From: Carcharhinus amblyrhynchos
Lineage: Eukaryota
Length of the DNA: 64,000 bases
Reading direction: 5' to 3'
Assembly: GCA_965287045.1 (NCBI GenBank)
Contig: OZ336878.1
Span: 110,422,001 to 110,486,000 of the forward strand
How positions within the stretch are numbered: the stretch's first letter is position 1; every line of letters starts with the position of its first letter. The position numbers and the translations under genes are program-made. Of this stretch, positions 2,603-51,059 are shown one piece after another. The notes under the pieces were generated by a model. That model did no database searches and was not told the origin of the DNA. It saw only the letters and a program-made list of their open reading frames with translations.

Positions 2603-2645
2603 ATGCTATGCAATAGAATCGTTTGGTCATTGCTGTTGTTCTCTG
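2603..2645 (+). CDS. NCR3: NKp30/NCR3-like gene A, signal peptide exon (MLCNRIVWSLLLFS-G)
   Basis: gccATG at 2603, hydrophobic leader, phase-1 donor G|gtaagt at 2645/2646, acceptor ccacag| at 2588; in frame with V exon at 5457. Confidence 0.85.
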
Positions 2646-2689
2646 GTAAGTAATCTGCACCCGGGCTCTCTCATTTGTCTATGAATAAA

Positions 2690-3130
2690 CGTATGTACAC
2701 ACACGCATACCCAGAGTTACACATCCACACAGATACTTGTTATCGAGGTTTATGCACCAATATATACATATATATCTACTTATATTAGAAACAAATATTT
2801 AAATATTTCACGCAGAAGCGTCGACACACACATCTGTAAAGATATCTATATTATTCAGATGCGTACTTCATATAGAGGTATAAATGCATACATATAAACA
2901 TATTGCACAAACACACATCCACACGCACAGATACGTACGCACACATACTCCCACATGTATGCACACACATACATGTACACAAACGAACACACACATATAT
3001 CAACATATACACACATACACTCAGGCACGCACGGACACATCCACACACTCAAACGCACACACACACACACACGGGCACATACATCAACACACTCTCCCAC
3101 ACACAGACATACACACAAGCACACACACAC
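2690..3130. repeat. Degenerate (CA)n/(CATA)n simple repeat
   Basis: Visible acacac/atacac runs; paralog at about 24000-24565. Confidence 0.9.
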
Positions 3131-3625
3131 TGAAGCCCCTCATACCTAGAACCGTTCTCGTAAATCTTTTTCGCAATGTCTTCAATCCATTCAAATCATT
3201 TTTGGGATGCCGGAACAGCGTGTGGGGAGAGATTGGGTCAGTTCGGATCACAGAAGAGTTTAGATGGAGCTTAGACAAAGGTAGGGCGATCTCATAAATA
3301 CCGATAATATTCTAGCAGGACTTGACAGGGTAGATGCAGGAAGGGATATTCCCGATGTGGGGTGTCCAGAACCATGGGTCACAGCCTAAGGACACAGAGT
3401 AAACATTTTAGGTCTGAGATGAGGAGGAAGTTCTTCAATCAGAGAGTGGTGAGCCCGTGGACTTCGCTGGCACAGAAAGCACAGATATAACTCTTGAGGC
3501 TAAAAGTAGAGGAGGGGCGGGAATAGGGTACTGAGTTGGATGATCAGCAATTAATATAATGAATGATAGGAAAGGCTGGAAGGGTTGAATTTAGTACTCC
3601 TGCCCCTATTTTATATGTTCCTATG
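3131..3625. mobile_element. CR1 LINE 3' fragment with inverted 5' piece
   Basis: About 3131-3245 is minus-strand CR1 (KRFTRxxxGMRG); about 3250-3625 is plus-strand CR1 3' end; same structure at about 24583-25098. Confidence 0.7.
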
Positions 3626-4137
3626 TCTGTAAAGTGCGATGGCCAAAATGTTATTTTACACAGGGTTTACATAACTTCTGTGCCCCATTAATAAATGCTG
3701 TCTATTTCATTAACAGCCGCCTCCTCCCCATTCTGCCACCTTCAATGACTTATGCACATACACATCGGGGTGGCTCTGTTCCTACAGAGTAGGACCCTTC
3801 ATTTTTCTCTTCTCCCTTCGTGTTTGTTCTACCAGAACGAATCACTTCACAATTCTCTGCGTTAAATTAAATCTCCCATTTGACCCCCGATTCCAGCAAA
3901 CTGTCCATATGCCATTTCGAACTCCGCCACTATCCTCATCGCCCTTCACAATGCTTTCAAATTTTTAATGCTCCACAATTTTAGAAAATGGTGCCCTGAG
4001 AATCAAGGTCATTTATCTATGCAACGTCACAGGTTTCTTATTCCTTGTCGCTCTTTGGCGATTGTGCAAAGACGGAGCTACCACTCCGCCTCGCATATAA
4101 AGCTCGGAGCAACAATGTAGCGTGGCGCGACTATTGC

Positions 4138-4180
4138 ATGTTTACCGGAGTTACCGACTCCAGAGTTACAGTCTACCAAG
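4138..4180 (+). pseudogene. Truncated relic of the V-exon 5' end with dead acceptor (AG to CG)
   Basis: atgtttaccggagttaccgactccagagttacagtc matches atgtttacag|gagttactgactctggagttacagtc at the V exon start (27326 onward). Confidence 0.7.
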
Positions 4181-4811
4181 CAAGGATAGAGAATGATAAG
4201 AATTGTTGACCCTGTTTCCCTCTTTACGATTATGTGGACATTTTAATTTGTCTTTATATGCACAAGAAGAGTCTGGCTCAAAAAAAAGGACAGGTAACCA
4301 CTAAGACTTAATATTTTCGACTCCCTGGCTGGAATGTATACCTTGAGTGTGCTTGAACCGTGCTGAAAAAGTGCCCGATTTTCCTACAATTTCGAATTCT
4401 AATTTATCACCAGTTTTTTATTTACATACGCGCCTCATTTGTAACTTAGGCTCCCAGCTAGTGTAAGGTGGCATTTGCTTTAAAGCGTAATATTCACGCT
4501 TCTGACCTGCTTTCGGGAACACTGTGGAGCCAATGAAATATTTGCAAGTAGAGGCTTCAGTTGTTCGGCAGTAGCTGCCGCCAGCGCCAGTTGAAACGTA
4601 TTGTAGTCAATTCCCATTAAATGAAGGGCAGCTTCAGCCTCGTTGCTCCTCTTTATTTGTGGTTTTGGCTGAGGGGTAGAAAGAAAAGTCTCAGAAAGCA
4701 GACCCGAAGGTAGATTGAACATCAGAAATAAAGCCGGAAAATATCACTCGGAATTCAGGCGGTACTCAATGTACATTCAGGTCGGGCAATGGCTGGGGAG
4801 AAACAGGGAGA

Positions 4812-4945
4812 CCGGGGGAGAGATTCTCCGGCCTCCAAGCAGTGTGATTCTGGCCGGCGGGTGGTGGAGCGTTGTTTACCAGCGGATGAAAAATATCCCA
4901 TTGACCATGCAGCAAGAAACCAGCAGGAGAATCCCGCCAAAGAAT
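4812..4945. mobile_element. Short MITE-like element with imperfect terminal inverted repeats
   Basis: gggggagattctcc ... ggagaatcccgcc; the paralog at about 26281-26830 carries a SINE insertion. Confidence 0.45.
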
Positions 4946-4984
4946 GGAGCGGCCAGGACCTTGTAGCCTTAAGTGTTAATTTTA

Positions 4985-5272
4985 CTTATTAATTTCAAAG
5001 AAGTCTTACATTAACACTGCAATGAAGTTACTGTGGAAAGCCCTCAGTCGCCACACTCCGACGCCTGTTCGGGTACACTGACGGAGAATTTAGCACGGCC
5101 AATGCACCCTAACCAGCACATCTTTCAGATTGTAGGAGGAAACCGGAGCACCCGGAGGAAACCCACGCAGACACGGGGACAAGGTGCAGAATCCGCACAG
5201 ACAGTGACCTAAGCCGGGAATCGAACCCGGGTCCCTAGCACTGTGAGGCAGCAGCTAACCACTGCGTCACCA
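4985..5272 (-). mobile_element. SINE with HE1-like head and alternative tail (family B)
   Basis: Reverse complement of HE1-type head plus tail gtgtggcgact..gggcttt.cacagtaacttcattgcagtgttaatgtaag. Confidence 0.8.
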
Positions 5273-5456
5273 TGTCATAAATCAATGACCCTTCTTCAGA
5301 AAACTGAAGCGTTAAAATGACCCGTTGCGCGACTGAGCTTCTTGTTGCTGTCAGCCCATTGCTGATATCCATTTCAGAGCCCAGTGTTTCTGTAACTCAA
5401 AACCAACAATGTGGAGTGGCCTGACTGTTGATGAGGGTATAAATTTATATTTACAG

Positions 5457-5810
5457 GAGTTACTGACTCTGGAGTTACAGTCAAGCAAACACCGAACTCT
5501 GTTAGTGTTAAAGAAGGCGACGCCATCCATCTGTATTGTAGCTTCAGCGAGAATGCGACCGATTCAAGAAACAGAGCTATTGGTTCAGTCACTTGGTATA
5601 AAGATTTCCGAACCTGTGAAGTCCGCAACAACTGCAGAGAATATATCGGACGTGTTCAGAATTCTGATGTATCTTCCTTCCGCGAATTCAGAAACGCATC
5701 CATATCGATAACCAATGTGACCCTGAACGACACAGGGAAGTATTACTGTGAGGTGGAGCTTGTGATCGGCGTAAAGGGGACGGGAGAAGGAACAGATGTC
5801 ACAGTAAATC
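5457..5810 (+). CDS. NCR3: NKp30/NCR3-like gene A, single VJ-type IgV domain exon
   Basis: ttacag| ... C|gtgagt, 354 nt, phase 1/1, open. VKQTP..VKEGDAIHLYC..RAIGSVTWYK..EVRN..YIGRV..ASISITNVTLNDTGKYYCEVE..GTGEGTDVTV; AIGSVTW, EVRN and GTGxGT motifs match human NKp30. Confidence 0.9.
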
Positions 5811-7792
5811 GTGAGTTTGTGTTGCACCTGTAGCCTCACATTCCTTACAAATTGACACGTAAATGGGAGCTAAGGATAATTAATCCACCCCCAGATTGAA
5901 AGTCCCCCATGCTGGGTCTTGCCCACACAAATTGAATGCTGACGGGATCGGATGCAACCCTCAGGGTTTCACTCTATCCGGGTTTACTATGTTTCTACAA
6001 TAGTGGAGAAGAATTCTGGACCAGGTATAAAGCACAGTCACAACACCATGCAATGGTTTCAGCCCCCTGTGTCTGTGCGTGCTTGTTGTACAAGCTCACC
6101 TCTAAAGTAACACAATGTGCCCCAATCCCTAGCACTTTTCCGAAACCGTATCATATTGTACTTTGAACGCTCGATCCTTAATTAATTCACTTTTAAAATT
6201 CAGAACTAGCTGCCTCCAACACACTCTGAACCAGTGGATTCCAGATCCTAACCACTCAGTGCATGAAATGAATGCTTTATTTCCCTCATGCCCTTGTTGG
6301 CAGATTACCTGAAGTCCATCTCATCTCCTTATCGACTCTATCATAATAGGGAACAGTTTAACTCTAACTACTCTGTCCAGACCCTCGTGCATTTATTGCC
6401 CATCCCATTTTTTTTATTGAATTCAAATTCCACCACTTGCCATGTTGGGATTCGAACCCTGGTCCCCAGAACATTAATTGAATTTCAGGATTAATAGTCA
6501 CCTAGATAGGCATAAGTATTAAAGCTATAAATTCATGTTGCATTCGGCAAAAACACTCAGCTGCTGTTACATAAACACGAACATAGCAAAATAGGAGCAG
6601 TAATAGTTTATCGCTGGATTGTGGATCCAACTTCACATCCCGCCTGCCTACCATAACCCCGATTCCCTTGTTAACCACGACCACATTACAGTGGAATGGG
6701 TGGAAGTGCACAAACTTCATTTCTAGAATAATCCTAACGTAAAAAAGTGACAGAAAAGTAAACTTGGTTGGATATCCTTTCTGCATTATTTACTGTCACT
6801 TGACGACAATACTTGCCACTAGGGAATCATCATTCCAAGAATTTGAGCAAGACAAGTCAGAATAGAAAGGAGGATTCCAGTTAGGCGAGGATTCACCAGA
6901 CCATTCTCTTTCTATATGTCCGATATCAAGATACGGTATTGGCGAAATAGGCAAACAAATTATTGGAACACACTTTCCCCTCCACCAGCAGAAATTAAAA
7001 CAAGGCAGGAACATAGATTGTCATTTGTTGTCGCAACGAAACTGAAGACATTCCAGCCATTTTTATAGTTGGGACATTCATTGTGTACAGTTGGGTGCTG
7101 AGTCAGAACTCGAGATATCCCCAGGGTTGGCAAAATCCAGCAATAAATATTCAGGCTCCAGCTACTGGAAAATAAGTAATTTATGTGTACGCCAAACAAA
7201 TTCGAGAAAGTGGTGAGGGGGGGGGGGGGGCCGGGGGGGCGAGAGGGGCGGTGGAGGGGTACTGGAAAAGAAATAATTTATTTGTATGCCAAACAAATTC
7301 AAGAAAGAGGTGGGGAGGGGGTGCGAGAGGGGTAGTGGAGGGGTGGGGTAGTGCGGGCGCGGGGAGAGAGAGAGTTGTGCAGAACATTGTACAACAGCTC
7401 ATTTCACCATCCCCCTAACACTCCACTAAACGATCCGCGAGGAAATCTTGTGTTCACCGAACTGGCACGTTCTATCGGCTTTATCTGCTCACCATCTCTC
7501 TGCACCAGCGCTCTTGTCTCTCACCCTCAGTTAGTTTGCTTTCAACTAAAATGTACGACCAGCAACGGCCATCACCCAAACACAAATAGGGATGGTGGCT
7601 GACACATTATTTTGACTTTTCTGCTCATTTGCTCGGTGATCTGTGCACCGAGGTTTGAAATTCATCTTGCGGTTTCTCAACTGAAGCCCAGAATACCTGC
7701 ACCACCTCCACCCCCCTCCTCCTCCCCACTTCCCATCAAAAACACAGATGGGAAGAAAAAACATTTTTTTTGTTGCTGTTTTCTCTCTAAAG

Positions 7793-7930
7793 ATCATGTT
7801 GATTCTGAAGTAACAACACCTCCAAGTCAATGGAACACTTATCTGCTTATTTTCTCAGTGTTGGCTTTTGTGGTACTTGCTGTCATCCTGACTAAACTAA
7901 TTTATATTCTGCAATGCTGTAGACCACCAG
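7793..7930 (+). CDS. NCR3: Gene A stalk/transmembrane exon (HHVDSEVTTPPSQWNTYLLIFSVLAFVVLAVILTKLIYILQCCRPP-G)
   Basis: ttctctctaaag| acceptor, CAG|gtaatt donor, 138 nt, phase 1/1, in frame with V exon, hydrophobic span. Confidence 0.85.
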
Positions 7931-8129
7931 GTAATTATTCTGAATTCAGCCTATTTTACAACAAGGCGTGAATGACTATATGACTGAAGAATAGCATTGC
8001 TGATCTATGGCTTACATTGTTATACACCTACAATGTCTCTGAAATAATTAGCATGATTAATAATTACAGTAATACCAGCATTTCCATGAATATTCTTATT
8101 TTCCAAAGGGAGTTTTTTTAAAGTTAACA

Positions 8130-8370
8130 GCTAATTTATTAGCCACAAGTAAGGCTCCCATTAACACTGCAATAAAGTTACTGCGAAATTCCCCTAGTCG
8201 TCACAGCCCGGTTCATGTTCGGGTCAATGCACTTAACCAGCACGTCTTTCAGAATGTGGGAGGAAACCCGCAGGGAGACTCCACACAGTCACCCAAGCTG
8301 GGAATCGAACTTGGGTCCCTGGCGCGGTGAAGCAGCGGTGCTAACCACTGTGCTACCATGCCGCCCATGC
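8130..8370 (-). mobile_element. SINE family B
   Basis: Same head and tail motifs as 4985-5272. Confidence 0.75.
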
Positions 8371-8779
8371 GTTAAATTTAGAAAATTATTTATAACCTGA
8401 CATAACTTGAAGCTGCAAATATCATGGCTCGTGTCATAGTTGTATATTAATTATATAAGATAAACTGGACAGTCAGCCACTCGGCTCAACCAATCCATGC
8501 TGCTCCTTATGCTCCATTCGAACCTCCTCCTAAATTTTTTAAAAATCTAAATATATGATTATAACCATTCGTATTCGCTTCCCTCATTTGTTTGCCTGCA
8601 TTACCCTTACGGATGTACTTTGCTTTAATATCCTGTGATATTCTAACCATCATTAAAAACGATGGACAACAATTTTGTGTCAAGTGTGAAAAACAGCGTC
8701 GTGCCTGATGCTATGAACTCCCTCCCGACATCCTTTCAATAAATAACTTAATTGGGTGAGTTGTTTTTTTCTGAAACAT

Positions 8780-10143: not shown

Positions 10144-10611
10144 GTCGCTTTAATTCGGAAGGGACATCGCTTGCAAATCAAGGGAACGTTTATCGGCTCA
10201 TAGCGTCAGCGTTGGTGCTAGTATTGCTGGCATTCATCTTTCGGACGGCTCGGTGGCACAGTGGTTAACACGGCTGCCTTACAGCTCCAGCGACCGGGGT
10301 TCGTATTCCAGTCTTGGGCGACCGTCTGTAGAGTTTGCACGTTCTCCCCGTATCTGCGTGGGTTTCCTCCGGGTGCGCCGGTTTCCTCCCAGACTCCAAA
10401 GACGTGTGGATTACATGGATTGGCCATGCTAAATTGACCCTTAGTATCAACGGGATTAAGCATGGTAAATACTTGGGATTATGGGTATAGAGCCTGGGTG
10501 GGATTGTTGTTAGTGCAGGGTCGATGGGCTGAATGGCCTTCTTCTGCACTGTAGGGTTCAATAAATTCTATTCTATTTTCAAATTTCCTCCTCACTGCTG
10601 CAGACCTCTCG
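10144..10611 (+). pseudogene. Divergent paralogous TM exon (RFNSEGTSLANQGNVYRLIASALVLVLLAFIF..HCCRPL) interrupted by a SINE; donor mutated
   Basis: tttctctctgtag| acceptor; upstream intron resembles 7470-7790; after the SINE, tgctgcagacctctcg|ctaattat matches tgctgtagaccaccag|gtaattat. Confidence 0.8.
10243..10576 (+). mobile_element. Full-length HE1-type SINE inserted in the pseudo-TM exon
   Basis: Complete head-to-tail SINE motifs. Confidence 0.9.
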
Positions 10612-11244
10612 CTAATTATACTAAATTCAACTTGATTACTAAGTAGAGTAAGTTACTGCAGACCTATATCTTCCCTGCAGTGTGTTGAATACCGTATATG
10701 TAAAAGGACACCGCGATTAGTTTAACTCACGATGCAATGTATCTAGAGCGACACTAAATCAAAATGATGTTAATCACAATAATGACAGCGTTGGCTACGA
10801 TTATTTTGTTTAACAAATGGAACTGAACAAGGCCATTGTTAGAACTTTGCATATTTTGAAATCAGAAATACCATGGTTTGTACCATAGATGTGTTTTGAT
10901 TACCGCAGAATCAATTAATGGAAAGACCGATATAGTCACATCTCCTGATTCGGTTCCCAGCTTGGGTCACTGCCTTAGCAGAGTATGCATGTTCTCCCAT
11001 TGTCTGTGTAGATTTGCTTCAGGTTTCCTTTCACACTGCGGGTTAGGTGGATTGGCCATGTTAAATGCGCAGGGTAACTATTATAGGGCGGGGGAGTGAC
11101 CCTCGGTAGAGTGCTCTTTCACAGGGTCGCTGCAGACTTGATGGGGAATGATTGGGATTCTGTGCACTGTGTTCGGCGAAAGGGGCGTGAAGAAAGCAAA
11201 GAGACTGGGCAATCGGCCACCTGCCATGCTGTGTCCTATGATTT

Positions 11245-11655
11245 AGAAAAATGAGGGGAGATCTCATTGAGACGTATAAGATGATGAATGGGATGGATAG
11301 GATAGAGGTGGAGAGACTCTTCCCGCTCAGAAAAGACAGTAGGACTAGGGGGCACAGCCTCAAGATAAAGGGGAGGCGGTTTAGAACGGAGTTGAGGAGG
11401 AACTTCTTCACTCAAAGGGTGGTGAATCTCTGGAATTCTCTGCCCGTTGAAGTGGTGGAGGCTGCCTCGCTAAATATTTTTAAGAAGCGGGTTGATGGGT
11501 TCTTGATAAGAGAGGGGATTAATGGTTATGGGGAGAGGGCGGGAAAGTGGAACTGAGCCACAACAGATCAGCCATGATCTTATTGAATGGCGGGGCAGGC
11601 TCGAAGGGCTAGATGGCCTACTCCTGCTCCTATTTCTTATGTTCTTATGTTCTAT
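11245..11655 (+). mobile_element. Young CR1/HER1 LINE 3' end
   Basis: ORF 11251-11556 RGDLIETYK..TRGHSLKI..FFTQRVVNLWNSLP; nearly identical to 366-785. Confidence 0.92.
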
Positions 11656-12834
11656 TCTGTGACAAAGCCAAGTACTGTCCCCACATGCTCCACGCCATGA
11701 GAGAGAACGTGACCAAATTCTCTCGCAAAATAATTTTCATAGAAATCCATAATCGCTTCAATTGACCTGACGTGGATAGATTTGGGAAGCTTAGGGAGAA
11801 AGCAGCCAATGTTGCCGAGTCCAGGAAGAAACGTGAATCTTATGACGAGATATAGCTTGCGTTTACGTAGCTCTTTCCACCGTGTAAAACAACCTAATGT
11901 AAATCATTATTAAGCAACAGTTGACACTACAGTGAGATATTCCAGCAGCTTATCCAAGAGCTGGGATGAACTGATAGACTCTCAGGACAGTCTTAAAGGA
12001 GAAATGAGAGGACGTGAGGCGGAAACGGAAAGAAAAGAGAAAGGGAAATTGTGTTATAACTAACTATGTTTCAGTTAGTTACAAGAATAAAAAAAATGAC
12101 TGCTACCCACCAATGTGCGCCACAGTTGTCACATATTGAATGATTGATTTAATGTCTTCGCTCCATTGAATTACAGTCTGGTCATCAAAATTGAAGAAGG
12201 AACGCTTACCTAATTGTGCATCCGAGTAAACCTCAGAATGTTTCACTACTTTATAGCATTTTTGATCAATTTGCCCCAGGCTTTGCGGATCACAGTGTTT
12301 TTGTCACATCATATATAAGGTCTCAGGCAATGGTGCGCTGAGAAACTAAATGGCCGGAATTCTCCCATCCCGTCCGCCACTAGAATTTTAGCGGGCGCGT
12401 TGCGGAGCATGTGAAACGCCACTGACGGTCGGGTGGGAATTTTTGGCTTTAAGACCAGCGCGGTCGGAAAATTCCCAGTTCAAAATGAAAGTCTGTGTTA
12501 AGGAAAGAGCACATTTTCTCCTAAAGTTTTCACTTTTATTAATCACTGAAATACGCCATTTTGGACTATTACTGTTCTTCCAGCTTGAAAATATGCAATC
12601 AATTTAAAATGCGTATAGGTCAAAGAATTAAACAAGGAATCCAGGCTGTAAATGCGGTATGTGATAAAACTCAATGAAAACCATCGGTTTTGATTTGCAC
12701 TGTGGTTAATGTGGCTATTTTTGAGGAAGAAAGATGCAAAGCTAAGGTTCACGTTAACAAAATCAGCATGGTGAATATAATTGGAATAGAGGAAAACAGA
12801 AGTAAGATAGAGCGACTCGTTTAACATTTGGGAT

Positions 12835-13070
12835 GTGTTTTTTTTATTCATGTTTGGGACATGGATGTCGCTGCCTGGCCAGCATTTATTGCCCATCCAT
12901 AGTTGCCCTTGAGAAGGTGGTGGGGAGCTGCCGTCTTGAATCGCTGCAGTCCACGTGTTGTGGGTTGACCTGCAATGCCGTTAGCGTTAGGGGGGAAATT
13001 CCAGGATTCTTACCCAGCGACTGCGAATGAACGGCAATATATTTATAACTGAGAATAGTGAGAGGTTTGG
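12835..13070 (-). mobile_element. 3' end of a second LINE family (gggcaataaatgctggcc tail)
   Basis: Reverse complement of the tail seen at 20270-20470. Confidence 0.6.
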
Positions 13071-14149
13071 AGAGCCTAGTGTCAACATGGCTGCAGCCGG
13101 AAATGGAGATAGAAAGAGAAATCACCAAGGCACACAGCTGGCACTGTGAATCAACATTTGTTAACAAATGGACGTCTTCTTCAAATGCTTTCTAAGGAAT
13201 CCGAAAAAGTTAGGATCGGGGGTGAGGTGCGAGGCTCACACGCAACACTAGTATTATGCAAGAGTTTCAAATTGAATTTTTGTATTGATGCTGAATAGAA
13301 CTGTAGCCTGCTTGATATTAAACTTAATTCTATGGACATTTCCCGTGATACATTTAACAACGTCAAATTCTAACACATATGTGGCAATATATTAATGCCA
13401 GGCCGTAATGTCATAAGGCGTAGGTGGAGAGGTCGGTCATTCGGCCCATCGAGTCTGCTCCGCCATTCAGTGAGACCAGGGCTAATCTGATAAGATATTT
13501 CTCGACTCCACTTTCTCGCTGTGTCCCTTACTGATTAAAAATCCGTCCACCTCAGGCTTTAACATACTTAACGACCCAACCTCTGCAAACTTTTGCGGTA
13601 AAGAATTCCACAGATTCACTATCGAAACGAGGACTGCAGTTCGTGATTTACCCATGAAAAAGCCTTGTATCACATTTATTAGTTTTTGTCGAGAAATGTT
13701 CAGAGTTCATTCGTTCGTTGAAATAACCTGCCAGCCCTCACATATATTTCTTACCTGATTATAACGAGAACTTTAGTCTTTATAGTCTTTAGTCTATCGC
13801 ATGGGAGGTTGCCTGCATGGTGTGTTAATTTGTTCTCGTATTATATGAGCGATTTTCTGCTCTAAATATATCCTTTATTGCAGATTACCCCGCTGTATGT
13901 ATCTGATATAGGGACTCGGACTTTTTCCATTGTCGCCAACTTGCCACGCTTTGTGAAAGGAATTATTGACAATTGCCGTGTTCACGCTGCCAAGGTCGAG
14001 ATTCATTTGGGAGTTTGACCTTTGTAACGTGGGCGCTAGCTGACCCAAGTTCTCGAAGCTGTCCGGGCATTGTGTTAATCCTTATTTATCAGTGGGTCTT
14101 CCTGGTAACCGCTTGCAAACCCAAACTGTCATTTGCTGTCCCAAAGCTG

Positions 14150-14395
14150 TCTGTGTGGAGTTTGTACATTCTCCCTGTGTCTGCGTGGGTTTCCTCTGGG
14201 GGCTCTGGTTTCCTCTCACTGTCCAAAGATGTGCGGGTTAGGGTGAATTGGCCATGTTAAATTGCCCCTTAGTGTCAGGGGGGCTAGCTAGGGTAATTGC
14301 ATGGGGTAATGGGGATAGGGCGAGGGGGGAGGATTATGTTCCGTGCAGACTCAAGGGGCCGAATGGCCTCCTTCTGCACTGTAGGAATTCTATGA
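14150..14395 (+). mobile_element. 5'-truncated HE1-type SINE
   Basis: ctgtgtggagtttgtacattctcc ... gggccgaatggcctccttctgcactgtagg. Confidence 0.8.
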
Positions 14396-14668
14396 ATGCA
14401 ACATGCAACAGTGAACAGTATAATCATAATTAAATACCAACATGCAGTCAAAAGAAAAATGTTTCCACAACGAATGCTAGGTTCGCCCTACTGCTCCGTG
14501 TGATTTCCATTTCGGGTTTTCAATCAAAAGATGCTCAGTACAAGTTAAGAAATCAACGATTGACTCGAAGTTAAAAGCAATTGAAGATAGTAGTGCGCTA
14601 TTGTAGACGTTTACAAGCTGAAGCAAGTGACTTAACATAATCACAATATTTGTTCAAAAAAATTGCAG

Positions 14669-14905
14669 GGCGGAGTCATGTTGGAAAACTATGATTTATG
14701 AGAAGCTGAACCTCAGTCAAACAGCCACCCTCCTGATGCGATTGTGTGCAAGACAACGAGGTCATGCGTACAAAGCAAAAACACATAGCGAGAGGAGAGG
14801 TGTCACTCCCGGACAGCAACGGAGAATCTCAATTGCAGACATTTTATAAATTGTAACCGGATCTAGAGGCGGCTATTAGCATCAACAGAAATCGCTTTGA
14901 TGCTT
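14669..14905 (+). pseudogene. Decayed paralog of the ITIM cytoplasmic exon (TMIYEKLNLS..SLPDSNGES), frameshifted and internally deleted
   Basis: ttgcag| acceptor; aligns by eye with 41712-41867 and then jumps to 41992-42060. Confidence 0.75.
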
Positions 14906-23915: not shown

Positions 23916-23958
23916 ATGCTATGCAATCGAATCGTTTGGTCATTGTTGTTGCTCTCTG
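23916..23958 (+). CDS. NCR3: NKp30/NCR3-like gene B, signal peptide exon (MLCNRIVWSLLLLS-G)
   Basis: ccacag| acceptor at 23901, gccATG, G|gtaagt donor, phase 1. Confidence 0.85.
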
Positions 23959-27335: not shown

Positions 27336-27689
27336 GAGTTACTGACTCTGGAGTTACAGTCAAGCAGACACCGAACTCTGTTAGTGTTAAAGAAGGCGAC
27401 ACCATCCACCTGTATTGTAGCTTCAGCGAGATTGCGACCGATTCAAGAAACGGAGCTATTGGTTCAGCCACTTGGTATAAAGATTTCCGAACCTGTGAAG
27501 TCTGCCACAACTGCACAGAATATATCGGACGTGTTCAGAATTCTGATGTATCTTCCTTCCGCGAATTCAGAAACGCATCCATATCAATAACCAATGTGAC
27601 CCTGAACGACACAGGGAAGTATTACTGTGAGGTGGAGCTTGTGTTCGGCGTAAAGGGGACCGGAGAAGGAACAGATGTCACAGTAAATC
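27336..27689 (+). CDS. NCR3: NKp30/NCR3-like gene B, VJ-type IgV exon
   Basis: ttacag| ... C|gtgagt, 354 nt, open (ORF 27326-27712), canonical Cys/Trp/DxGxYYC/GxGT. Confidence 0.9.
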
Positions 27690-30935: not shown

Positions 30936-31068
30936 GTCATGTTGATTCTGAAGTGACAACACCGCCAAGCCAATGGAACACATATCTGCTTATTTTCTCC
31001 GTGCTGGCTTTTGTGGCACTCGTTCTCATCCTAAGTAATTTATATTCTGCAATGCAGGGGACCACCAG
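30936..31068 (+). CDS. NCR3: Gene B stalk/TM exon with a 5-bp deletion; donor at 31068 (frameshifted) or cryptic in-frame donor at 31034
   Basis: ctttctaaag| acceptor; RHVDSEVTTPPSQWNTYLLIFSVLAFVALVLIL; 133 nt versus 138 nt in gene A. Confidence 0.85.
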
Positions 31069-37856: not shown

Positions 37857-37888
37857 GTAAAAGAAATGGAGCCCAAACAGTAAAAGAG
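37857..37888 (+). CDS. NCR3: Gene B first cytoplasmic micro-exon (xKRNGAQTVKE)
   Basis: catttcatag| acceptor, GAG|gtacgt donor, 32 nt; converts phase 1 to phase 0 exactly as needed to join the TM exon to the ITIM exon. Confidence 0.65.
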
Positions 37889-38969: not shown

Positions 38970-39375
38970 ATATTAGGGATCTTATAGAGACATATAAGAT
39001 AATGAAGGGGCTAGAGAGGGTAGAGGTAGAGAGATTCTTCCGGCTTAGAAAGGATAGCTGAACTAGAGGGCACAGCCTCAAAATAAGTGGGGGGGGGGGG
39101 GTGCAGTTTAGATCGGAGTTGTGGAGGAACTTCTTCACTCAAAGGGTGGTGAGTCTCTGGAATTCTCTGCCCATTGAAGTGGTGGAGGCTAACTCGCTGA
39201 ATATATTTAAGTCGCGGGTAGATAGGTTTCTGATAGACAGGGGAATTAAGGGTTATGGGGAGAAAGCGGGAAAGTGGAATGATCCACTTCAGATCAGCCA
39301 TGGTCTTATTGAATGGCGGGGCAGGCTCGAAGGGCTAGATGGCCTACTCCTGCTCCTATTTCTTATGTTCTTATA
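38970..39375 (+). mobile_element. CR1/HER1 LINE 3' end
   Basis: FFTQRVVSLWNSLP; 3' UTR nearly identical to 11560-11650. Confidence 0.9.
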
Positions 39376-39379
39376 TTCT

Positions 39380-39674
39380 TACAGTGCAGAAGGATGCCAT
39401 TTGGCCCATCGAATCTGCACAGCCCACAATCTCACCCAGGTTATATCCCCATAACCTCAAGCATTTGTCCTAACTAACTCCCCTCCCCTCCCAAGGGGCA
39501 ATTTGGCATGGCTAATTCACCTAACTCGCACACCCTTGGAGTACGGGAGGAAACCGCAGCAAACGTTTGCATACACAGGGAGAAAGTGCAAACTCCACAC
39601 AGACAGTGGCCCAAGTGAGAATCAAACCCAGGTCCCTGGTGCTGTGTGGCATCCGTGCTAACCACTGTGCCACC
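39380..39674 (-). mobile_element. HE1-type SINE directly abutting a 5S-like sequence
   Basis: Head ggtggcacagtggttagcac begins at 39674 on the minus strand. Confidence 0.8.
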
Positions 39675-39797
39675 AAAAGCTTTCTACACCTCGGATTGCT
39701 AGAAAGTCTCCCATCCAAGTACTAACTAGGCCTGAGTCTGCTTAGCTTCCCGACATCAGACTAGATTGGGCATTTTCAGACTGGTAAGGTTGTGGAC
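39675..39797 (-). pseudogene. Full-length degenerate 5S rRNA copy
   Basis: Reverse complement contains ..ctgatgtcgggaagctaagcag..ggcctagttagtacttggatgggagac..gctttt, i.e. 5S box A/IE/box C; about 120 nt; many substitutions. Confidence 0.9.
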
Positions 39798-40269
39798 TGC
39801 ATGTAGAGACTGCATTCTCTGCGAGTCCTCTCCAGCAAGGCATTTCAGCTCCAGCTGTTACTTGTGCCGCTTAGTACAGGGCAACGTTGACACTCGCAAA
39901 GTTGAGACTCAGTTGGGTCTTTCGGCTCAGCGCTGTAGACTTAAACTGAACTTCAGTGTCGAAGGCGACAGAGTGCAGACCTACTAGAACTACAAAACCT
40001 TTCGTGCAACCGATTACGAATTCAAATTGAGATTTTCTGCCCTGAACGTAATCGACAACGCCGAATTGGGGAAACATACTGATCAGTTTACCAGCTAACT
40101 GTGTCCAATTCCCACGATGAATGTCAACTGGCCACTGGAAAACGACACTCATAATGATTGTATGGCGACCATTACCGAAAGATTGCTTTAAATGTGTTTT
40201 TTTTCGGCAACAGCCAGGAAGAGAATCTCCTTTTTATAATATCACTAACTTTTGCATAACCCTATTCAT

Positions 40270-40760
40270 AGAATCGCTACAGTGTAGAAGGAGGCTCATT
40301 CGGCCCATCAAGTCTGCACCAACCCTCCGACAGAGCATCTTATTCAGGACGCCCCCTCCCCCATCCAATCTCTGTAACTCCATTTACTTAGCCACGCTGA
40401 TCCCCCTGACCTACACATCTTTAGACACTAAGAGGCAATTTAATATGGCCAATCCACGTAACCTGAACATATTTGGACACTAAGGGACAATTTAGCATGG
40501 CCAATCCACCTAACCTGTACATCTTTGGACACTAAGTGGCAATTTAGCACAGATAATCTGCATGACCTACACCTCTTTTGACACTAAGGGACAATTTAAC
40601 AGGGCAAATGCACCTAACCAGCATATATTTGGACTGTAAGAGGAAGCGGGAGCACTGGTGGGAACACACGAAGACACGGGGAGAACGTGCACGCCCCGCA
40701 CAGTCACCCAAGGCTGGAACCGAACCCGTGTCCCTGGTGCTGTGAGTCAACAGTGCAAAG
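40270..40760 (-). mobile_element. HE1-type SINE with four internal ~52-bp tandem units
   Basis: gacactaag.g.caattt repeated four times at about 40420-40610. Confidence 0.8.
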
Positions 40761-41239
40761 TGAGTCATACACTGCATGTATGTTGTTGTGAATGAAGCTA
40801 TGGATTTTTTTTTTCAGCGTATTCTGGAATAGCGAACACGGTTCATTTGTTTTAATTTGTTTACGGGATAGGGGCCAACATTTACTGTCCATCCCTAGTT
40901 GCCCTTCAGAAGGTGCTGGTGAGCTGCTCTTTTGAACCTCTGAAGTCCCTGAGGTGTAGGCACATCCAGAGTGCTGTTAGGGATGAAACCCAATCCGGGC
41001 TAAATATCAGAACATGCTTACAATGGGTATTTGCATAAACCGTCGGGGTTTTAAGTAACATTAGTTTCTCCGCATTGTACTTGTGATATGAGAAAGAAAC
41101 TTTTCAATCGAAACCAATAGCAATGGCTCAGTAAAATTGAACATTAGTGACACTGCAGTATCGTTTGTATTCTCCACAACCTGGGTGATCTGATCGCCCT
41201 TCTTATCAAATTTTGGAATAAATCATCTCCTTAATTCAT

Positions 41240-41690
41240 CAGGATGTTGCCTGGTCTCGAGGGTGTTGGAAATGAGAAGGGGTTGCATAAGCTAGGATTA
41301 TTTTCACTGGAAAGACGGAGGCTGAGGAGGGATCCGATAGAGGTCTACAAAATTATGAGAAGAGTGGGCAGGGTGAATAGTCAGTCTTTTTCCAAGTGTC
41401 AATTACAAAGGGGCACAGGTTCAGGGGGAGAAGGAGAAAGTTTACGGGAGATGTGCGGGGGAGGTTTTTCCCGCAGACACCGATGGGTGTCTGGAACGTG
41501 CTGCCAGAGGAGGTGGTGGAAGCAGACACATGAGTAACATTTAAGAGGCATCTGGATGGGTAAAGGAATAGAGAGGGAATAGAGAGATACGGACGGAGTA
41601 AAGGCAGAAGAGTTCTATTTAGTTTAGTTCAGCAATCATGATCGGCGCTTGAAGGGTCAAGGAGCCTGTTCCTGTGCTGTTCTTTTCATC
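41240..41690 (+). mobile_element. Old CR1 3' fragment
   Basis: LGLFSLERRRLRRDxIEVYKIM (ORF 41244-41537). Confidence 0.85.
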
Positions 41691-41711: not shown

Positions 41712-41966
41712 GAGGAAGGCACGTCGGAAACTCTCGTCTATGCAAAGCTGAACATCAGCCACCAGCCTACTGACAGGACTGTGCATGAGAGGGCCAGGGC
41801 ACCGGTTCAGAATAAAAAGCCAAGAGAGACTCGGGCGGCGCCACTCCCAGAGAGCAGTGGAGAACCTGTTGTATACGCGCCATTGAAGGAGTCAATTCCG
41901 TTGGAGCCCGTGGAGACCCGACGAAGGAATGAAGAGCAAACCGTATATGGGAGAGTGAGAGTGTAG
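41712..41966 (+). CDS. NCR3: Gene B terminal cytoplasmic exon with ITIM (LVYAKL), ITIM (VVYAPL) and ITSM (TVYGRV)
   Basis: tttaag| acceptor, 84 open codons plus TAG: EEGTSETLVYAKLNISH..GEPVVYAPLKES..EEQTVYGRVRV*. Confidence 0.85.
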   Translation, partial: EEGTSETLVYAKLNISHQPTDRTVHERARAPVQNKKPRETRAAPLPESSGEPVVYAPLKESIPLEPVETRRRNEEQTVYGRVRV

Positions 41967-43620: not shown

Positions 43621-46346
43621 TCACAGGTATAAATTAAAAAATAAATTGTACATGAATGGCAATGACTGGCCTAAATGGCGAACATCAGTTGATTTGTCTG
43701 CAATTCCTTGAAGTAATCAAACCTAGCCACTCAACGCTGGTTATGAATAACACCAATATCTTAGTCTCAGAGCAGCAATGATCGTGCCTTTTATTGGAAG
43801 ATCAGTACTGCCTGGAACTTGTAAATTATGCCTGAGGGATAAGTGTCACCAGCTGAAGCCAGTCGAATTCAACCTCTTGTATGTTAACAGCCGCTCCACC
43901 GTTTTGCAAAGTTTTGTTGAAGCTTTGAACTTGGTCTGTCACTAACCAACAATCGGAATGAACATTACATACTTCCCCAAGAAAGGGTGCTCAGTGGTTA
44001 CTGTCATCGTTACTTCTCTGCATAATGTCTCCTTCTACTTCAGAAACTTATCCAGCTGATTTCAAAGCTCCCTTCACTTTGACGTTCGTTTAGTAACGCA
44101 GATGTGTTTTTACTTTACATTGATGTATCCATGGCTGCCACCATGTTTTGAGATTGGTCATTCTGTCTTGGACTCAAGGCATGGGGCTTGCTGCTTAGAC
44201 AGTGCGCAGACATCCTCTGTTACCTGGTTATCTCTTGTTTATTAATACTACATTTAAACAAGTTATGGGATATACATGTCACTCCTAGGCATGGTTCCAA
44301 CTTCGCTTTCGAGTGTCTAGCCCATGACTAATTAGAGTCACCACTGCATAATCATACATTAGCATATCCCATTTGTTAAACCTTTATGTAAACACATTGC
44401 TGCCACTGTGTTCTCACCAGAGCAACAGTTTCTGCTCTAGTATTCTAGCTCCAAATGTAATAAAGTCAAACATGCCTTTTGTCTTTCTAATTGTTTACAG
44501 TAGCCGTATGTTGAGTCTCTGGGTCCTTTGTACCAGGACACTCTGATAACAAACACAAGAGCATAAGGAATCAGAGCAGCTGCAGACAATATGGCCCCTC
44601 AAGCCCACTCCACTTTTGAATATGACCATGATTCTTCGGCCTCACCTCCAGTTTCTTGCCTAGCCCCATATCCTTTGATTACCTTTGTACCACCGAGAGG
44701 TGGCGACAGAGAGTCCCAAAGATACCCATCCAGCTGAGTGACAAGACAGCTTCATTTCCTGCCTTAATAATCCCCCCTCTATCCTGAGACTGCTCCCCCC
44801 TCTAGATTCCCCAGCAAGAGAAACAACCTCTGAGTGCCTACCGCAAGAACCTTCTTTTAAATTTTGCATGCTTCAATGAAGCGACCTGATACTTTCTGTG
44901 TTGACCAAATAAGGGAAGTTGTTTGAGTTATGCTAGCCTTCTTGTCACCATGGTTTCCCGCAATGTCCATATATACTTAACGCGATGTGACCTACGTGCA
45001 GTTTGGGATAAACATTATGGAGTTGTGTACAAATAACTTAATTGGCCGCGATCAAACATTGTGATCGGTTTCAGATGATATAGCTGGCTGAGTCCCAGAG
45101 AACTTGAAGATTGGGAGAGTCTGGGGATAAAGAATAGTGTTTCAGCCTTTGCTTCCAGTGACAACTCGAATTCCACCATCACAAGTGTGCCATGAAGAAT
45201 ATCTTCGGAGTTGACAACCCCGAGGAAGAATTTACACCAGGAACTGACCTGGGCTGTTCGGTCAAAAGTCAGGGTAGTACTCATTTTTAATGAAAGAGTT
45301 AAAATTAAAGAGTTAAAGTTAAAACTTAGAGAGTTAACGTTGGAGAATTGAAGTGAAAGAGTTAACGTTTCGAGTTTTCCTATTTAATGTGTCAACTTAA
45401 CTAAAGTTTCTGTAAGTGAATTTGAGTCGACTCCTGTTCCTTTGTCCATTATACTAAACTAAGTACCTGGAAAGAAACTGAACAATACAGATTACATCTG
45501 AAATAACAAATATTTAAAAACCTCGCTTAATCTCTCTCCAGCTCCAGAAGAAGTGGGTGATTGAAGTCCACATCAATATTCACTGCTCAAAGAATTTTCA
45601 TTACAATCTTCCTCTAGAACCAAATCTTCCGAAATGAAGTCAGGGAAGGAGACTAAAAGGGGATCTGAAGAAAAGCTTGCTCACCCAGTGGGTGGTGGGA
45701 ATCTAGAATTCACTGCCTGAAACACTGGTAGATGCGGACAATCTCACAACATTCTTACTTGTGACTAATAAATAAATAAATATTTGAAAAGTATTTACAT
45801 GAACACTTGAAATGCCATAGCATACGAGGGTAGGGAGCAAGTGCTGGAAAATGGGATTCCAATAGCTAGACGTTTGATTGCACGATAGAGGGAAGGGCCT
45901 TTTCCAAAATTACAAGACTCTAACATCATTGGCAGATAACTCGAAGGCGCTTTTCCTACATTACACAGAACAACTGAGGAAAGTACAGAATTGGCGGCAG
46001 AGTTCCTTGGGACGCCCTAAGGTCGGAAGGTGCTACACAAACTCAATAATTTTCCCATTTCTATTTCAAATTCTCACGTCAGTAACTCAATGCATATGAG
46101 AACTAGATAATCAATCCTCTTTTAAATAACAGATCAATGGGGAAAGAACTGGAAGCACTTAAGCGAGTTGGGTGGAGGTAGAATTCAAAGCATGCAGTTA
46201 TCAGAAAAGGAAGATTGTTCAAGATTACATCGTTAAAGCGGGAAAACTGAGTCAGGCGAGTTATTCATGCAAAGAGCCGATGCAGGTACGATGGCCCAAA
46301 TGGTCTGCTTTTGCGCCGTAATGTTTCTGTGATTCTGCGATGCGAT

Positions 46347-46424
46347 TTCCCTTTAGAGATTGTGCATTACCAGAATGCGGAAGTATTCTTCCCTTTAGAG
46401 ATTGTGCATTACCAGAATGCGGAA
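46347..46424 (+). repeat. Perfect 36-bp direct repeat, period 42
   Basis: ttccctttagagattgtgcattaccagaatgcggaa twice. Confidence 0.9.
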
Positions 46425-46659
46425 ACATTTTCCCAAATTTGCGCACCGGAATTCCCAATTAGGTCAGAGTTATCTGTTGAAGTAATCACAACCTGCATTT
46501 TCGATTTAACCGCATCTCATTGGCTGCATTTGGATATCTACTTCCTCATTATAATATCTATAGCTATAATTCCCCCTACCTTCACCGCATTGGTTTGCAG
46601 CCGCGTAATTCGCAGCATGTTGATGGTACATTTCGTGTGGCAGATTGATCGAGAGATTC

Positions 46660-47050
46660 AATAAACTGGGTTTGTTCTCTCTGGAAAGACGGAGGCTGAG
46701 GGGCGACCTGATGGATGGTTATAAGGAGCATAGATAAGGTGAACAGTTGGGAGCTTTTCCTCTGGGCAGAACTGACAATCACAAGGCGGCGCCAGTTCGA
46801 GGTAAGGGGGAAAGGTTCAGGGGAGATGTGCGGGGGAAGGTTTTACACAGACGGGAGTGGGAACCTAAGCACTACCAATGAGGTGGTTGAGGCAGGTAGG
46901 TTAGCGACATTTAAGACTTATCTGGATAGATACGTGAACAGACCGGGGATAGAGAGGTATAAGCGGTTGGTCTAGATAGAACGACGTGATCGGTGCAGGC
47001 TTGGAGGGTCAAAGGGCCTGTTCCTCCGCTATACTGTTCTTTGTTCTTGC
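46660..47050 (+). mobile_element. Old CR1 3' fragment
   Basis: gggtttgttctctctggaaagacggaggctgaggggcgacctgat ... aagggcctgttcc. Confidence 0.8.
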
Positions 47051-48868: not shown

Positions 48869-48914
48869 ATGAATCCCGCTAACCTGCTGTGGACCTCGAT
48901 GCTACTATTCTTTA
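48869..48914 (+). CDS. NCR3: NKp30/NCR3-like gene C, signal peptide exon (MNPANLLWTSMLLFF-T)
   Basis: ttccag|accactgtgaagcaATG mirrors gene B ccacag|acaactgcgaagccATG; A|gtaagt phase-1 donor. Confidence 0.85.
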
Positions 48915-48999: not shown

Positions 49000-49290
49000 G
49001 GGAGCAAGTGCAGGTCAGTTGACCCCGCGAGCCTGTCCTGCCAATCAATAAATTCATGGTTGATTTGATTGTAACCTCAGTCCCACATTCCTCCCTATCA
49101 CTGATAACCTTTTACCCCCATATTAATCAAGAATCTATCTAGCCCTGCCTTAAAGATATTCAAAGACTTTGCTTCCACTGTCTCTTAAGGAGGTGAATGT
49201 CAGAGATCCAAGACCCTCTCAGAGAAAAGAAACTTTTCCTCATCTGTGTCTGAAATGGGCGACCCGTTATTTTTGAAGCGTGACCAGCAA
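49000..49290 (-). mobile_element. CR1 3' fragment
   Basis: Reverse-complement CR1 3' UTR/ORF2 end motifs. Confidence 0.7.
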
Positions 49291-49419
49291 ATGATGAAGT
49301 AGAGAATCATTTGATAAAATTAATTATACGATGTTTGATAATCCGACCGTTGTAGCAAATAATACAGGGAAGCGTTACCTCAGTTTGTACATTAACTGGC
49401 TTCCGCATTTGTCTTCCAG

Positions 49420-49773
49420 CAACAACTGCTAGCAAGATCAAAGTGTTTCAAGAACCGCCCTCCATTGTGACAACCGAGGGAAAGACAGTCTACCTTCTCT
49501 GCACTTACAGTACATCTCATACTCAACAGAACGGAGCTTTCTCCTGGCACAGGAACACCAAAAATGGAACCGAAGAAACCAGAGTGACAAATAAATCTGA
49601 AAAATACTTGGGTAGGATTTTCGAGGTGGACAGACCATCTTTCAAAGCCAATCAAAACGCTTCTATTGCGATCAAAAACGTGAAACAGGATGACTCAGGC
49701 ATCTATTATTGTCAGGTGGAGATATTATTCGGCGTGAAAGATATTGGACCTGGAACAATACTAACAGTTGAAC
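49420..49773 (+). CDS. NCR3: NKp30/NCR3-like gene C, VJ-type IgV exon
   Basis: gtcttccag| ... C|gtaagt, 354 nt; KVFQEPPSIVTTEGKTVYLLC..GAFSW..YLGRI..ASIAIKNVKQDDSGIYYCQVEILFGVKDIGPGTILTVE. Confidence 0.9.
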
Positions 49774-49819
49774 GTAAGTTTATACAGTTGGTACTAGAAT
49801 AAGAATCCATGTGTTTGCA

Positions 49820-49921
49820 TGTGTGTGTGTGTGTGTGTGTGTTTGTATCTGTGTGTGTGTGTGAGACTGTAGACAGATGGACAAAGGTCGAGAGATATTA
49901 TGGACTCAGAGATTGAAAGAC

Positions 49922-49981
<60 letters not shown>

Positions 49982-50015
49982 GGATGGATCGATGGATCGA
50001 TGGGTAGATAGATTA
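49820..50015. repeat. (GT)n and (GATA)n microsatellites
   Basis: Direct reading: 49820-49862 and 49920-50015. Confidence 0.95.
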
Positions 50016-50604
50016 TAGGTACATACATACATATGTACATAGAAGGAAATTGATTGATAGAATATTTTCATTCCATATTTACTACAAAATGCGTAACCGT
50101 TATAATATTTCAGCAATATATCAGAATGACTATCTCAAAAACACATTTCCCAGCCTCACAGTATGGGGTTGAGTGAGTGGATGCAGATATGCGTCTCACA
50201 AGGCACACAGCTGACATGTATTAAGTATAATGGGTAGCCAAAGAGCACGCATTCGGAGTGGTATTCCATACAGCTAAATGTGTACTAATGATCTTGCTTC
50301 TTAGATCATCTAGTTCGACTTTAATCCTGATGTTGACTTTCTTTTTACTCAATAATTTACCCATTCCTTAATGCCATTGTTACATCATCCAAAACATTGA
50401 CAATGCTTCTTTCTGCTTTAATAAAGGAACTTTTTTTTACAATTTGTTCAGGATGCCATTGAACTAATAAATTAAGTGCATGTTACATAATTCTCTATCG
50501 TGTGTGTGGCAATATAATGAGGCTTTCATTGCACTGATTATTTCGAGATAGTCATCCTCATATATTGCAGAAATATTTTGTAGTAAATATGGACTGAAAG
50601 TATT

Positions 50605-50746
50605 NNNNNNNNNNNNNNNNNNNNNNNNNNNNNNNNNNNNNNNNNNNNNNNNNNNNNNNNNNNNNNNNNNNNNNNNNNNNNNNNNNNNNNNNNNNNNNNN
50701 NNNNNNNNNNNNNNNNNNNNNNNNNNNNNNNNNNNNNNNNNNNNNN
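50605..50746. other. Assembly gap (142 N) in the gene C V-TM intron
   Basis: Run of N. Confidence 1.
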
Positions 50747-50856
50747 CCCACACGAGTGTCTAAGAGAATGGCGAACAAGCTGAGTGAATATTGCGATGAG
50801 CTGCCGGAGTGAATCTAAGAAACTATTTCCTGAATTTAATTGTTACCTTTCTATAG

Positions 50857-51059
50857 ACCAGAAGCAACCCAATAAAAGCGGAGATTCGTTAGCTCGTAAG
50901 CTGATTGTGATGGGAGTGAAACTTGCAGTGTTTGCTGTGTTCATCATTATAACAATATCTTTCGTGCATTTCTACGATTCTCGAGGTTCTCCAGCGTCAT
51001 ATAATTCAGGTCGAGAGGAGATTGATTCATCCTGGAAATGTTACATGGAAATCGGTTAA
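50857..51059 (+). CDS. NCR3: Gene C stalk/TM/short tail exon with intramembrane Lys (LIVMGVKLAVFAVFIIITISFVHF)
   Basis: cctttctatag| acceptor, phase 1, in frame with V exon, open to TAA at 51059. Confidence 0.8.

Follow-up and report, generated by a model that had tools for sequence, protein, structure and literature searches.

The window analysed here is a stretch of 64,000 nt of the Carcharhinus amblyrhynchos genome, and it contains three NKp30-like genes, A, B and C, arranged in tandem on the same strand within 48.5 kb. Each gene has the leader, V and stalk-transmembrane (TM) layout of a type I protein with phase-1 introns, as in the NCR3/NKp30 family, and all exons mentioned below are on the + strand. 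Gene A consists of a 43-nt leader exon ending in phase 1 (2603..2645), a VJ-type IgV exon (5457..5810) and a 138-nt stalk/TM exon (7793..7930); gene B has a 43-nt phase-1 leader exon (23916..23958), a VJ-type IgV exon (27336..27689) and a 133-nt stalk/TM exon (30936..31068); and gene C has a 46-nt phase-1 leader exon (48869..48914), a VJ-type IgV exon (49420..49773) and a terminal exon for stalk, TM and short tail (50857..51059). The V exons are 354 nt each. The first-pass annotation had described consistent phase-1 introns for the three sets, which is correct for the leader-V and V-TM introns of all genes but not for the strong donor of B's TM exon, which is in phase 2. An assembly gap of 142 N (50605-50746) lies inside the V-TM intron of C and is crossed by the V-TM link of this gene. 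No flanking marker gene was recognised within the 64-kb window, and none of seven other open frames (46251-46661 on the + strand, 46509-46718 on the - strand and five in repeats) had a Pfam match.

The assignment of A, B and C to the NKp30 family, already proposed in the first pass, was upheld by the best sequence match (A and B), the best single-domain match (C) and the top fold match (B and C). In the PDB sequence search NKp30 was the top match for A (E 9e-12) and B; for C, two multi-domain antibody chains ranked above it by summed score, but the best single domain was NKp30, at about 43 versus about 25 bits. Folds were predicted for B and C (pLDDT 88 for the V model of B), and NKp30 occupied Foldseek ranks 1-4 for both models with a TM-score of about 0.8; an ESM Atlas search with C gave generic V-set clusters only. 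Each of the three V exons encodes a single VJ-type IgV domain, G strand (GxGT) included, and ends at a GT donor; all have a Pfam V-set match (E 1.7e-12 for A and 1.5e-17 for C). A rearranging TCR/Ig V segment would stop short of the G strand, at a recombination signal; here the same exon encodes the G strand and a splice donor follows, and such segments were ruled out. The CD28/CTLA4/CD28H group is marked, according to PMC11599192, by prolines (PPP or EIP) in the FG/CDR3 loop; neither motif occurs in that loop of A, B or C, and membership of this group was rejected. Among the 11 residues named in Table II of PMC3135353 as contacts between human NKp30 and B7-H6, about six are identical in A, five in B and four in C, as mapped by alignment. 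Human NKp30 likewise has a single IgV domain, but it is a single-copy gene with a TM Arg and without an ITIM exon, whereas the shark cluster is multigene and C has Lys.

Genes A and B are related by a duplication (about 2266-8610 versus 23580-31800) that stops short of the tail exons. Their V exons have 12 differences in 354 nt (93% amino acid identity), against about 10% in the flanking introns (p 5e-5), and the first 32 TM codons show eight synonymous and three conservative changes; the ectodomains and TMs of both genes have therefore been constrained or homogenised. The orthologue of A and B is a 280-aa protein of Heterodontus francisci annotated as 'natural cytotoxicity triggering receptor 3-like' (P0001 in our set of relatives), which has 66% V identity and the same layout of leader, stalk, TM, linker and tail, and is sister to A+B in both trees. 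It has one intact frame; the first two tail tyrosines are absent and TVYAAV alone is kept, so that ITIM content varies inside the A/B lineage. The leader of A aligns with that of P0001, and its TM exon is 64% identical to the P0001 counterpart over 44 aa. This exon is in the ancestral frame with a phase-1 donor, the frame being that of the orthologues P0001, P0002 and P0009 across the juxtamembrane region and the linker; the frame of B differs.

Read-through of A past 7930 meets a stop at 7969-7971, giving 192 aa, and an AATAAA lies at 8171, 200 nt beyond that stop. The TM of A has a Lys, which we rejected as an adaptor site on the basis of its position near the cytoplasmic end and its occurrence in the tail-bearing P0001 and P0002 (position 18 of the 21-residue window). 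Further downstream is a second, older TM-exon paralogue (10144..10241; 70% DNA identity to A's TM exon), broken at about 10241 by an interspersed repeat with 22 other matches in the window. Although a frame of 174 aa stays open when A's V exon is spliced to 10144, we did not accept this copy as an alternative TM exon of activating type and regard it as likely decay: its hydrophobic run is short, with the Arg at the outer edge, and its frame ends in the repeat. No linker-exon paralogue for A was detected in 10250-14660 under the cut-offs used. The claim that A has no intact tail of its own was confirmed, since the only remnant is a frameshifted ITIM-tail-exon paralogue at about 14671..14856, which contains stops and was delineated by tblastn with P0001, reading of three frames and DNA alignment.

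Downstream of B are a 32-nt cytoplasmic linker exon (37857..37888; phase 1 in, phase 0 out), which matches the linkers of P0001 and P0009 and has an alternative AAG acceptor at 37864, and a terminal tail exon (41712..41966) with two ITIMs and an ITSM-type motif (LVYAKL, VVYAPL and TVYGRV). The tail exon is 39% identical to the tail of P0001 and 33% to that of P0002, and three such motifs were reached in 1 of 20000 residue shuffles. Neither exon shows any damage: the splice sites are good and the three tyrosines are all present, a state that would also be compatible with continued use. The first pass had linked this ITIM-ITIM-ITSM tail to B; the intact tail is indeed downstream of B, but the link is one of position, and with the strongest splice sites its frame does not match that of B. 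Compared with A, B has a 5-nt deletion in the TM exon, because of which the strong donor at 31068 is in phase 2 and a stop is met at once in the linker exon: the first new codon (37858-37860) is the stop, and the product is a tail-less protein of 177 aa. An ITIM-bearing product of B requires either donor 31034, weak but in frame (260 aa), or the shifted acceptor at 37864 (269 aa), and both routes are open to the tail end. Scored with an approximate U1 matrix, not a trained model, donor 31068 matches the consensus at 10 of 11 positions and donor 31034 at 6 of 11; the donors of A's V exon and C's leader also score 6/11, so that 31034 is not dismissible by score alone. No cryptic rescue exon for B passed the cut-offs used in 31120-41650, and there is no AATAAA within 2.3 kb downstream of its TM exon.

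Gene C encodes a 202-aa protein whose leader is similar to those of P0013 and P0004 and whose V domain is 64-66% identical to P0013. It had been described as having a mid-TM Lys and a short tail; the Lys (in GVKLAVF) and the tail of roughly 28 aa without an ITIM were found, but within the hydrophobic stretch the Lys occupies position 6-7, which places it in the TM's outer third. The same TM type recurs in P0013, P0019, P0042, P0044, P0048 and P0077, and by its sequence C is an intact receptor of predicted activating type, a recurring type among NKp30-like relatives.

In a set of 48 relatives, a TM basic residue without ITIM/ITSM occurs in 17, an ITIM/ITSM without such a residue in 19, both in one and neither in 11. 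The two states are thus nearly exclusive, and an opposite-signalling design, as predicted from these features, is real across the relatives. On the V-domain trees, which cover NKp30-like relatives only, the Lys-type members are not one clade and the activating-type and ITIM-type members interleave; a single clade of A+B+C, a grouping named after the first tree had been inspected, was rejected (p-AU 1e-5). Paired receptors are defined by pairs with very similar ectodomains. KIR, CD300, Siglec, SIRP and LILR resemble the shark family in having clustered genes with ITIM versus charged-TM back-ends, but the V domains of B and C share 39%. Regarding sequence features, tandem clustering is present at our locus, and C has a TM basic residue, a short tail and no ITIM; highly similar ectodomains with opposite signalling are not found in B versus C. 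B and C belong to distant subfamilies with different predicted ligand faces, and consequently do not resemble each other as the partners in KIR, CD300 or Siglec pairs do. The sole look-alike pair at the locus is A and B (93%), both predicted to be tail-less by default, and closer opposite-type sisters (56-62%) occur only among other database proteins, possibly from different species. The first-pass reading of a paired-receptor system built on the NKp30 fold therefore survives as an activating/inhibitory split across relatives; at the locus level it finds no support in the tail of B, out of frame with the strongest sites, or in the distance between B and C, with the single clade rejected. The pairing claim is overstated for this locus, which is not a clean on/off pair.

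No NK-cell receptor other than NKp30 is known to be shared all the way from sharks to humans. Kinlein et al. 2021 (Immunogenetics 73:333) reportedly described shark NCR3 as a multigene family of multiple divergent single-VJ-exon genes, as A, B and C are, and that study and earlier Flajnik/Ohta papers are said to include both ITIM and charged-TM NCR3 forms; it is unlikely that B's frameshift is described by Kinlein et al. Both forms are also said to occur among the Xenopus XMIV genes, MHC-linked NKp30-related V genes reportedly characterised by Ohta et al. 2006, for which the literature searched gave unrelated papers only. That literature contained no paper on an ITIM-bearing shark NCR3, but key papers were outside its reach, so this is no evidence of novelty. 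PMC12227049 gives eight NCR3 accessions from nurse shark (MT914154-MT914161). In word-based protein searches, which are insensitive and missed P0002, the V exon of B found only P0001 among 470 candidates of 206-2000 aa, P0001 found itself alone among 1413 proteins of 154-490 aa, and the three V exons matched none of 33 proteins of 64-205 aa. Database protein searches gave no annotated protein for A, B or C, and no database model that settles the splicing of B. A, B and C are new members of the known NCR3/NKp30 family in an ordinary expanding and decaying receptor cluster. The interleaving of activating and ITIM back-ends on the V tree supports the view, probably already in print, that the single activating gene of humans is the remnant of a paired-type family.

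We consider it about 60% probable that the locus belongs to a multigene cluster of shark NCR3 (NKp30) type in birth-and-death evolution, in which B is tail-less by default and C is of activating type; what this implies for splicing, expression, adaptor use and ligands is predicted from the observed exons, frames and homology. The family has two predicted signalling back-ends, a TM whose outer third contains a basic residue, followed by a short tail, and a TM that lacks this residue, followed by a three-tyrosine tail; these back-ends are found with different V domains. The partner of C's Lys is most likely an acidic residue in an ITAM-bearing adaptor. By analogy with human NKp30, whose TM basic residue couples to CD3zeta/FcRgamma (PMC6514059), this adaptor is probably CD3zeta/FcRgamma. 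A and B would go back to a single recent duplication, the duplicated gene being ancestrally of ITIM type. The A copy probably comprised leader, V and TM only and came to lie in front of an older paralogue whose TM and tail have decayed, so that A is most likely the 192-aa tail-less read-through receptor. B would have retained the tail exons, which the TM-exon deletion throws out of frame, so that its constrained ectodomain is separated from a tail whose ITIMs are intact. The main product of B would be the 177-aa membrane-anchored protein without signalling motifs, possibly a decoy or the product of a decaying inhibitory allele. With 28 nt between its stop and the last junction, the transcript should be spared nonsense-mediated decay, and any form that carries the ITIMs would at most be a minor splice variant. 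An annotation that joins B directly to the tail is accordingly wrong or unproven, and the locus can be read as a snapshot of turnover in which a duplication was partial, a TM exon was broken by a repeat, one tail decayed and another was put out of reach by a frameshift.

A possible, though rather unlikely, alternative is that B is a functional inhibitory receptor beside the activating C, in line with the first-pass proposal though with unlike ectodomains, because 31034 or 37864 compensates for the deletion or because the deletion is confined to an allele or the assembly. The tail with its three motifs is intact, the two frames reach its end, the TM left after 31034 still has about 19 hydrophobic residues, and the deletion itself puts 31034 in frame, a possible compensation that would occur by accident in one case out of three. 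The 34 nt between the two donors carry four changes relative to A, all non-synonymous in A's frame, compared with three non-synonymous and eight synonymous changes in the upstream TM part (p 0.026); this is expected if the stretch has turned into intron, but the frameshift itself accounts for it equally. Moreover, donor 31034 lacks G at -1 and at +5 and competes with a 10/11 donor 34 nt away, and the AAG acceptor at 37864 follows a TAG by 7 nt. It may be that only this haplotype or assembly has the deletion, but a 5-nt deletion is not typical of consensus error.

More doubtful is the idea that the single ITIM tail is splice-controlled and not lost, with B toggling between decoy and ITIM-ITIM-ITSM forms through the close donors and acceptors created by the deletion, or with A and B sharing the tail as cassettes; if true, such control would add to the family-wide exchange of back-ends between shark NKp30 V domains. 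For the cassette form taken as the main explanation, in which A and B are alternative leader-V-TM units on one constant ITIM tail (as in protocadherin or UGT1), A is spliced over 30 kb to the linker and B is tail-less, we see little chance. A's TM joined to 37857 and 41712 does give an open 273-aa frame collinear with P0001, and the arrangement would account for an intact TM frame in A together with intact tail exons, though neither gene is complete alone; however, the splice must bypass compatible acceptors at 10144, 27336 and 30936, the poly(A) hexamers at 8171, 8652, 8738 and 10061 must be read through, and partial duplication accounts for the layout without cassettes. Least probable of all is that A and B are both recent pseudogenes and C is the sole functional gene: neither has a default route to a tail, and the clear pseudo-exons at 10144 and 14671 show decay at the locus, but the V exons and 5' TM parts of A and B are far more conserved than the introns, the TM changes are mostly synonymous, and the leaders and splice sites are intact.

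A six-frame scan of the window gave three IgV frames, each followed by a transmembrane (TM) frame, and a single frame that carries three tyrosine motifs; all lie on the + strand. Setting exon edges from splice sites and homologues, we obtained three NKp30/NCR3-like genes on this strand: A (2603-2645, 5457-5810, 7793-7930), B (23916-23958, 27336-27689, 30936-31068) and C (48869-48914, 49420-49773, 50857-51059), the limits of the finding being the ATG of A and the stop of C. The three leader/V/TM sets proposed in the first-pass annotation are present, with 354-nt V exons and phase-1 leader-V and V-TM introns in all three. The interval between B and C contains a linker exon of 32 nt (37857-37888, +) and a terminal exon with LVYAKL, VVYAPL and TVYGRV (41712-41966, +); three motifs occurred in 1 of 20000 shuffles of the latter's peptide.

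The V domains of A, B and C match Pfam V-set. Among PDB sequences, NKp30 ranks first for A (E 9e-12) and B (E 8e-9) and is the best single-domain match for C, where two multi-domain antibody chains rank higher by summed score. When B and C are modelled with AlphaFold (pLDDT 88 and 93), NKp30 occupies Foldseek ranks 1-4 (TM-score about 0.8, rmsd 2.3-2.7), with SIRP and VNAR below it. The proposed NKp30 fold and family is borne out by sequence matches for all three and by Foldseek for B and C. The sole named relative, the Heterodontus francisci NCR3-like protein P0001, has 66% V identity to A and B, which points to a shark as the source of the window. PMC11599192 gives a proline motif as a CD28-type mark; this motif was not found in A, B and C, whose G strand is encoded within the V exon. 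Because of the former the CD28-group genes, and because of the latter the rearranging V segments, were ruled out. A, B and C are real genes of the right family, and they are new members of a family already known. Shark NCR3 and Xenopus XMIV are both reported to include ITIM and charged-TM forms. Kinlein et al. 2021 and its supplements may bear on the novelty of the three genes; no description of an ITIM-bearing shark NCR3 was found in the literature searched, a scope outside which that paper lies. Two other papers cite eight nurse shark NCR3 accessions (PMC12227049) and mention NKp30 as an MHC VJ gene (PMC10751288).

The TM exon of B is, by deletion, 5 nt shorter than that of A. The frame of A, which judging from the alignments is the ancestral one, is collinear with P0001 and two other database relatives (P0002, P0009) along the juxtamembrane stretch and on into the linker; because B lacks 5 nt of this frame, its homologous donor at 31068 is phase 2, and the consistent phase 1 previously described holds only for the leader-V and V-TM introns. 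Splicing from 31068 to the linker exon brings TAA at 37858-37860 and a 177-aa product, identical to that with the intron retained, and skipping the linker gives 189 aa, out of frame too. The first-pass annotation, which linked B to an ITIM-ITIM-ITSM tail, overlooked this deletion; the tail exon itself is intact. Under the usual 50-nt rule for messages with early stops, the B message should survive, since its stop lies only 28 nt from the last junction. When GT/GC donors were combined with acceptors in the vicinity, two rescue routes looked plausible, via donor 31034 (260 aa) or acceptor 37864 (269 aa); the remaining combinations listed need very poor donors, the weak 31034 with secondary acceptors, or a GC donor plus the shifted acceptor, and no cryptic rescue exon lay above the cut-offs. 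Against an approximate U1 consensus of 11 positions, donor 31034 matches at 6 and 31068 at 10, and a score of 6 is also seen in two real donors of the window. An inhibitory state of B is unproven and predicted only through rescue splicing.

Between A and B, 12 of the 354 nt of the V exon are changed, whereas the adjacent introns diverge by about 10% (p 5e-5); in the first 32 TM codons, eight changes are synonymous and three conservative. Both genes still look to be under constraint, while gene conversion could also produce the low V divergence. Of the points that remain, the frameshift in B is the most interesting, as it separates an intact ITIM tail from an ectodomain under apparent constraint. 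The eight A/B V-domain differences (27338-27688 vs 5459-5809) include V44A and I103F, aligned with B7-H6 contact positions; an extra Cys at position 56 occurs in B, P0001 and P0002 and is absent from A.

The C product (202 aa) has the TM Lys and short tail noted earlier, the latter of about 28 aa without ITIM or ITAM, but this Lys lies at TM position 6-7, not mid-TM. PMC6514059 describes binding of CD3zeta/FcRgamma by the TM Arg of human NKp30 and of DAP12 by NKp44 via Lys. Since the Lys of C occupies the site of Arg in other family members, our guess for its adaptor is zeta/gamma, and DAP12 may serve instead. A 142-N assembly gap (50605-50746) in the V-TM intron may hide a missing exon; the V-TM link is supported because the sister of C, P0013 (V identity 64-66%), has the same GxKL-type TM, found also in P0019, P0042, P0044, P0048 and P0077. 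The pairing of an inhibitory B with an activating C was overstated: the family as a whole works like a paired-receptor family, whereas the B and C V domains are only 39% identical, not the similar ectodomains of paired receptors, and by sequence the two are different subfamilies. At the 11 B7-H6 contacts named in Table II of PMC3135353, as mapped onto alignments, identical residues number about 6 in A, 5 in B and 4 in C, with about 4/11 common to B and C.

In self-alignment, the A/B duplication pairs about 2266-8610 with 23580-31800, for the most part at 80-91% identity, and ends short of the tail exons. Downstream of A are an older TM paralogue at 10144, interrupted by a repeat that matches 22 further places in the window, and the remnant of a tail, frameshifted, at about 14671-14856. 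Read-through of A yields 192 aa, with AATAAA at 8171; splicing to the linker at 37857 would give an open frame for a 273-aa ITIM receptor, but three acceptors of compatible phase and a number of poly(A) hexamers would have to be bypassed. The tail of P0001, the orthologue of A and B, lacks the first two tyrosines; as the last motif alone is kept, the inhibitory tail appears to be eroding independently in that lineage.

An HMM search gave 835 proteins at E <=0.001, and from the best 150 we kept 66 (<=330 aa, one V pattern, not mammal-like), leaving out 84, among them P0009 and P0011 for pattern mismatch. A TM was called in 48 of the 66: 17 have only a basic residue at TM 4-10, 19 only ITIM/ITSM, one both and 11 neither (Fisher p 7e-5 for exclusivity, treating relatives as independent). 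The two signalling types require 10 changes (raw count) on a 55-row V tree, and AU tests on a 26-row tree rejected clades of A+B+C (p 1e-5) and of seven Lys-type rows (p 9e-72), both groups having been chosen after the first tree was seen. Opposite types are near sisters in P0011 with P0044/P0048 (56-59%) and P0043 with P0077 (62%), and C and P0077 are 63% identical in the TM exon over 27 aa vs 37% in the V domains; these relations, among gene predictions that may come from different species, suggest that back-ends have been exchanged between V lineages. The database relatives P0003-P0008 and P0010 have NCR3-like V domains in tandem, two to five each, and are either genuine multi-domain forms or predictions in which genes were fused.

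Overlapping open frames on both strands at 46251-46718, of which the + frame encodes a hydrophobic segment and is briefly duplicated internally, have no Pfam match or likeness to NCR3 relatives. Decayed repeats (about 32090-33090, 34200-35860, 58300-60150, 326-784, 11242-11653, 38976-39380), resembling CR1/L2-type LINE fragments, gave no Pfam match. A 5S rRNA-like copy (39678-39797, -; Rfam RF00001, 43 bits vs cut-off 38), probably a pseudogene, lies within the intron before the tail exon and adjoins an interspersed repeat. A SINE-like element has many copies in the window, and a tandem array at 40400-40643, with 4.7 copies of a 52-nt unit, resembles part of it.
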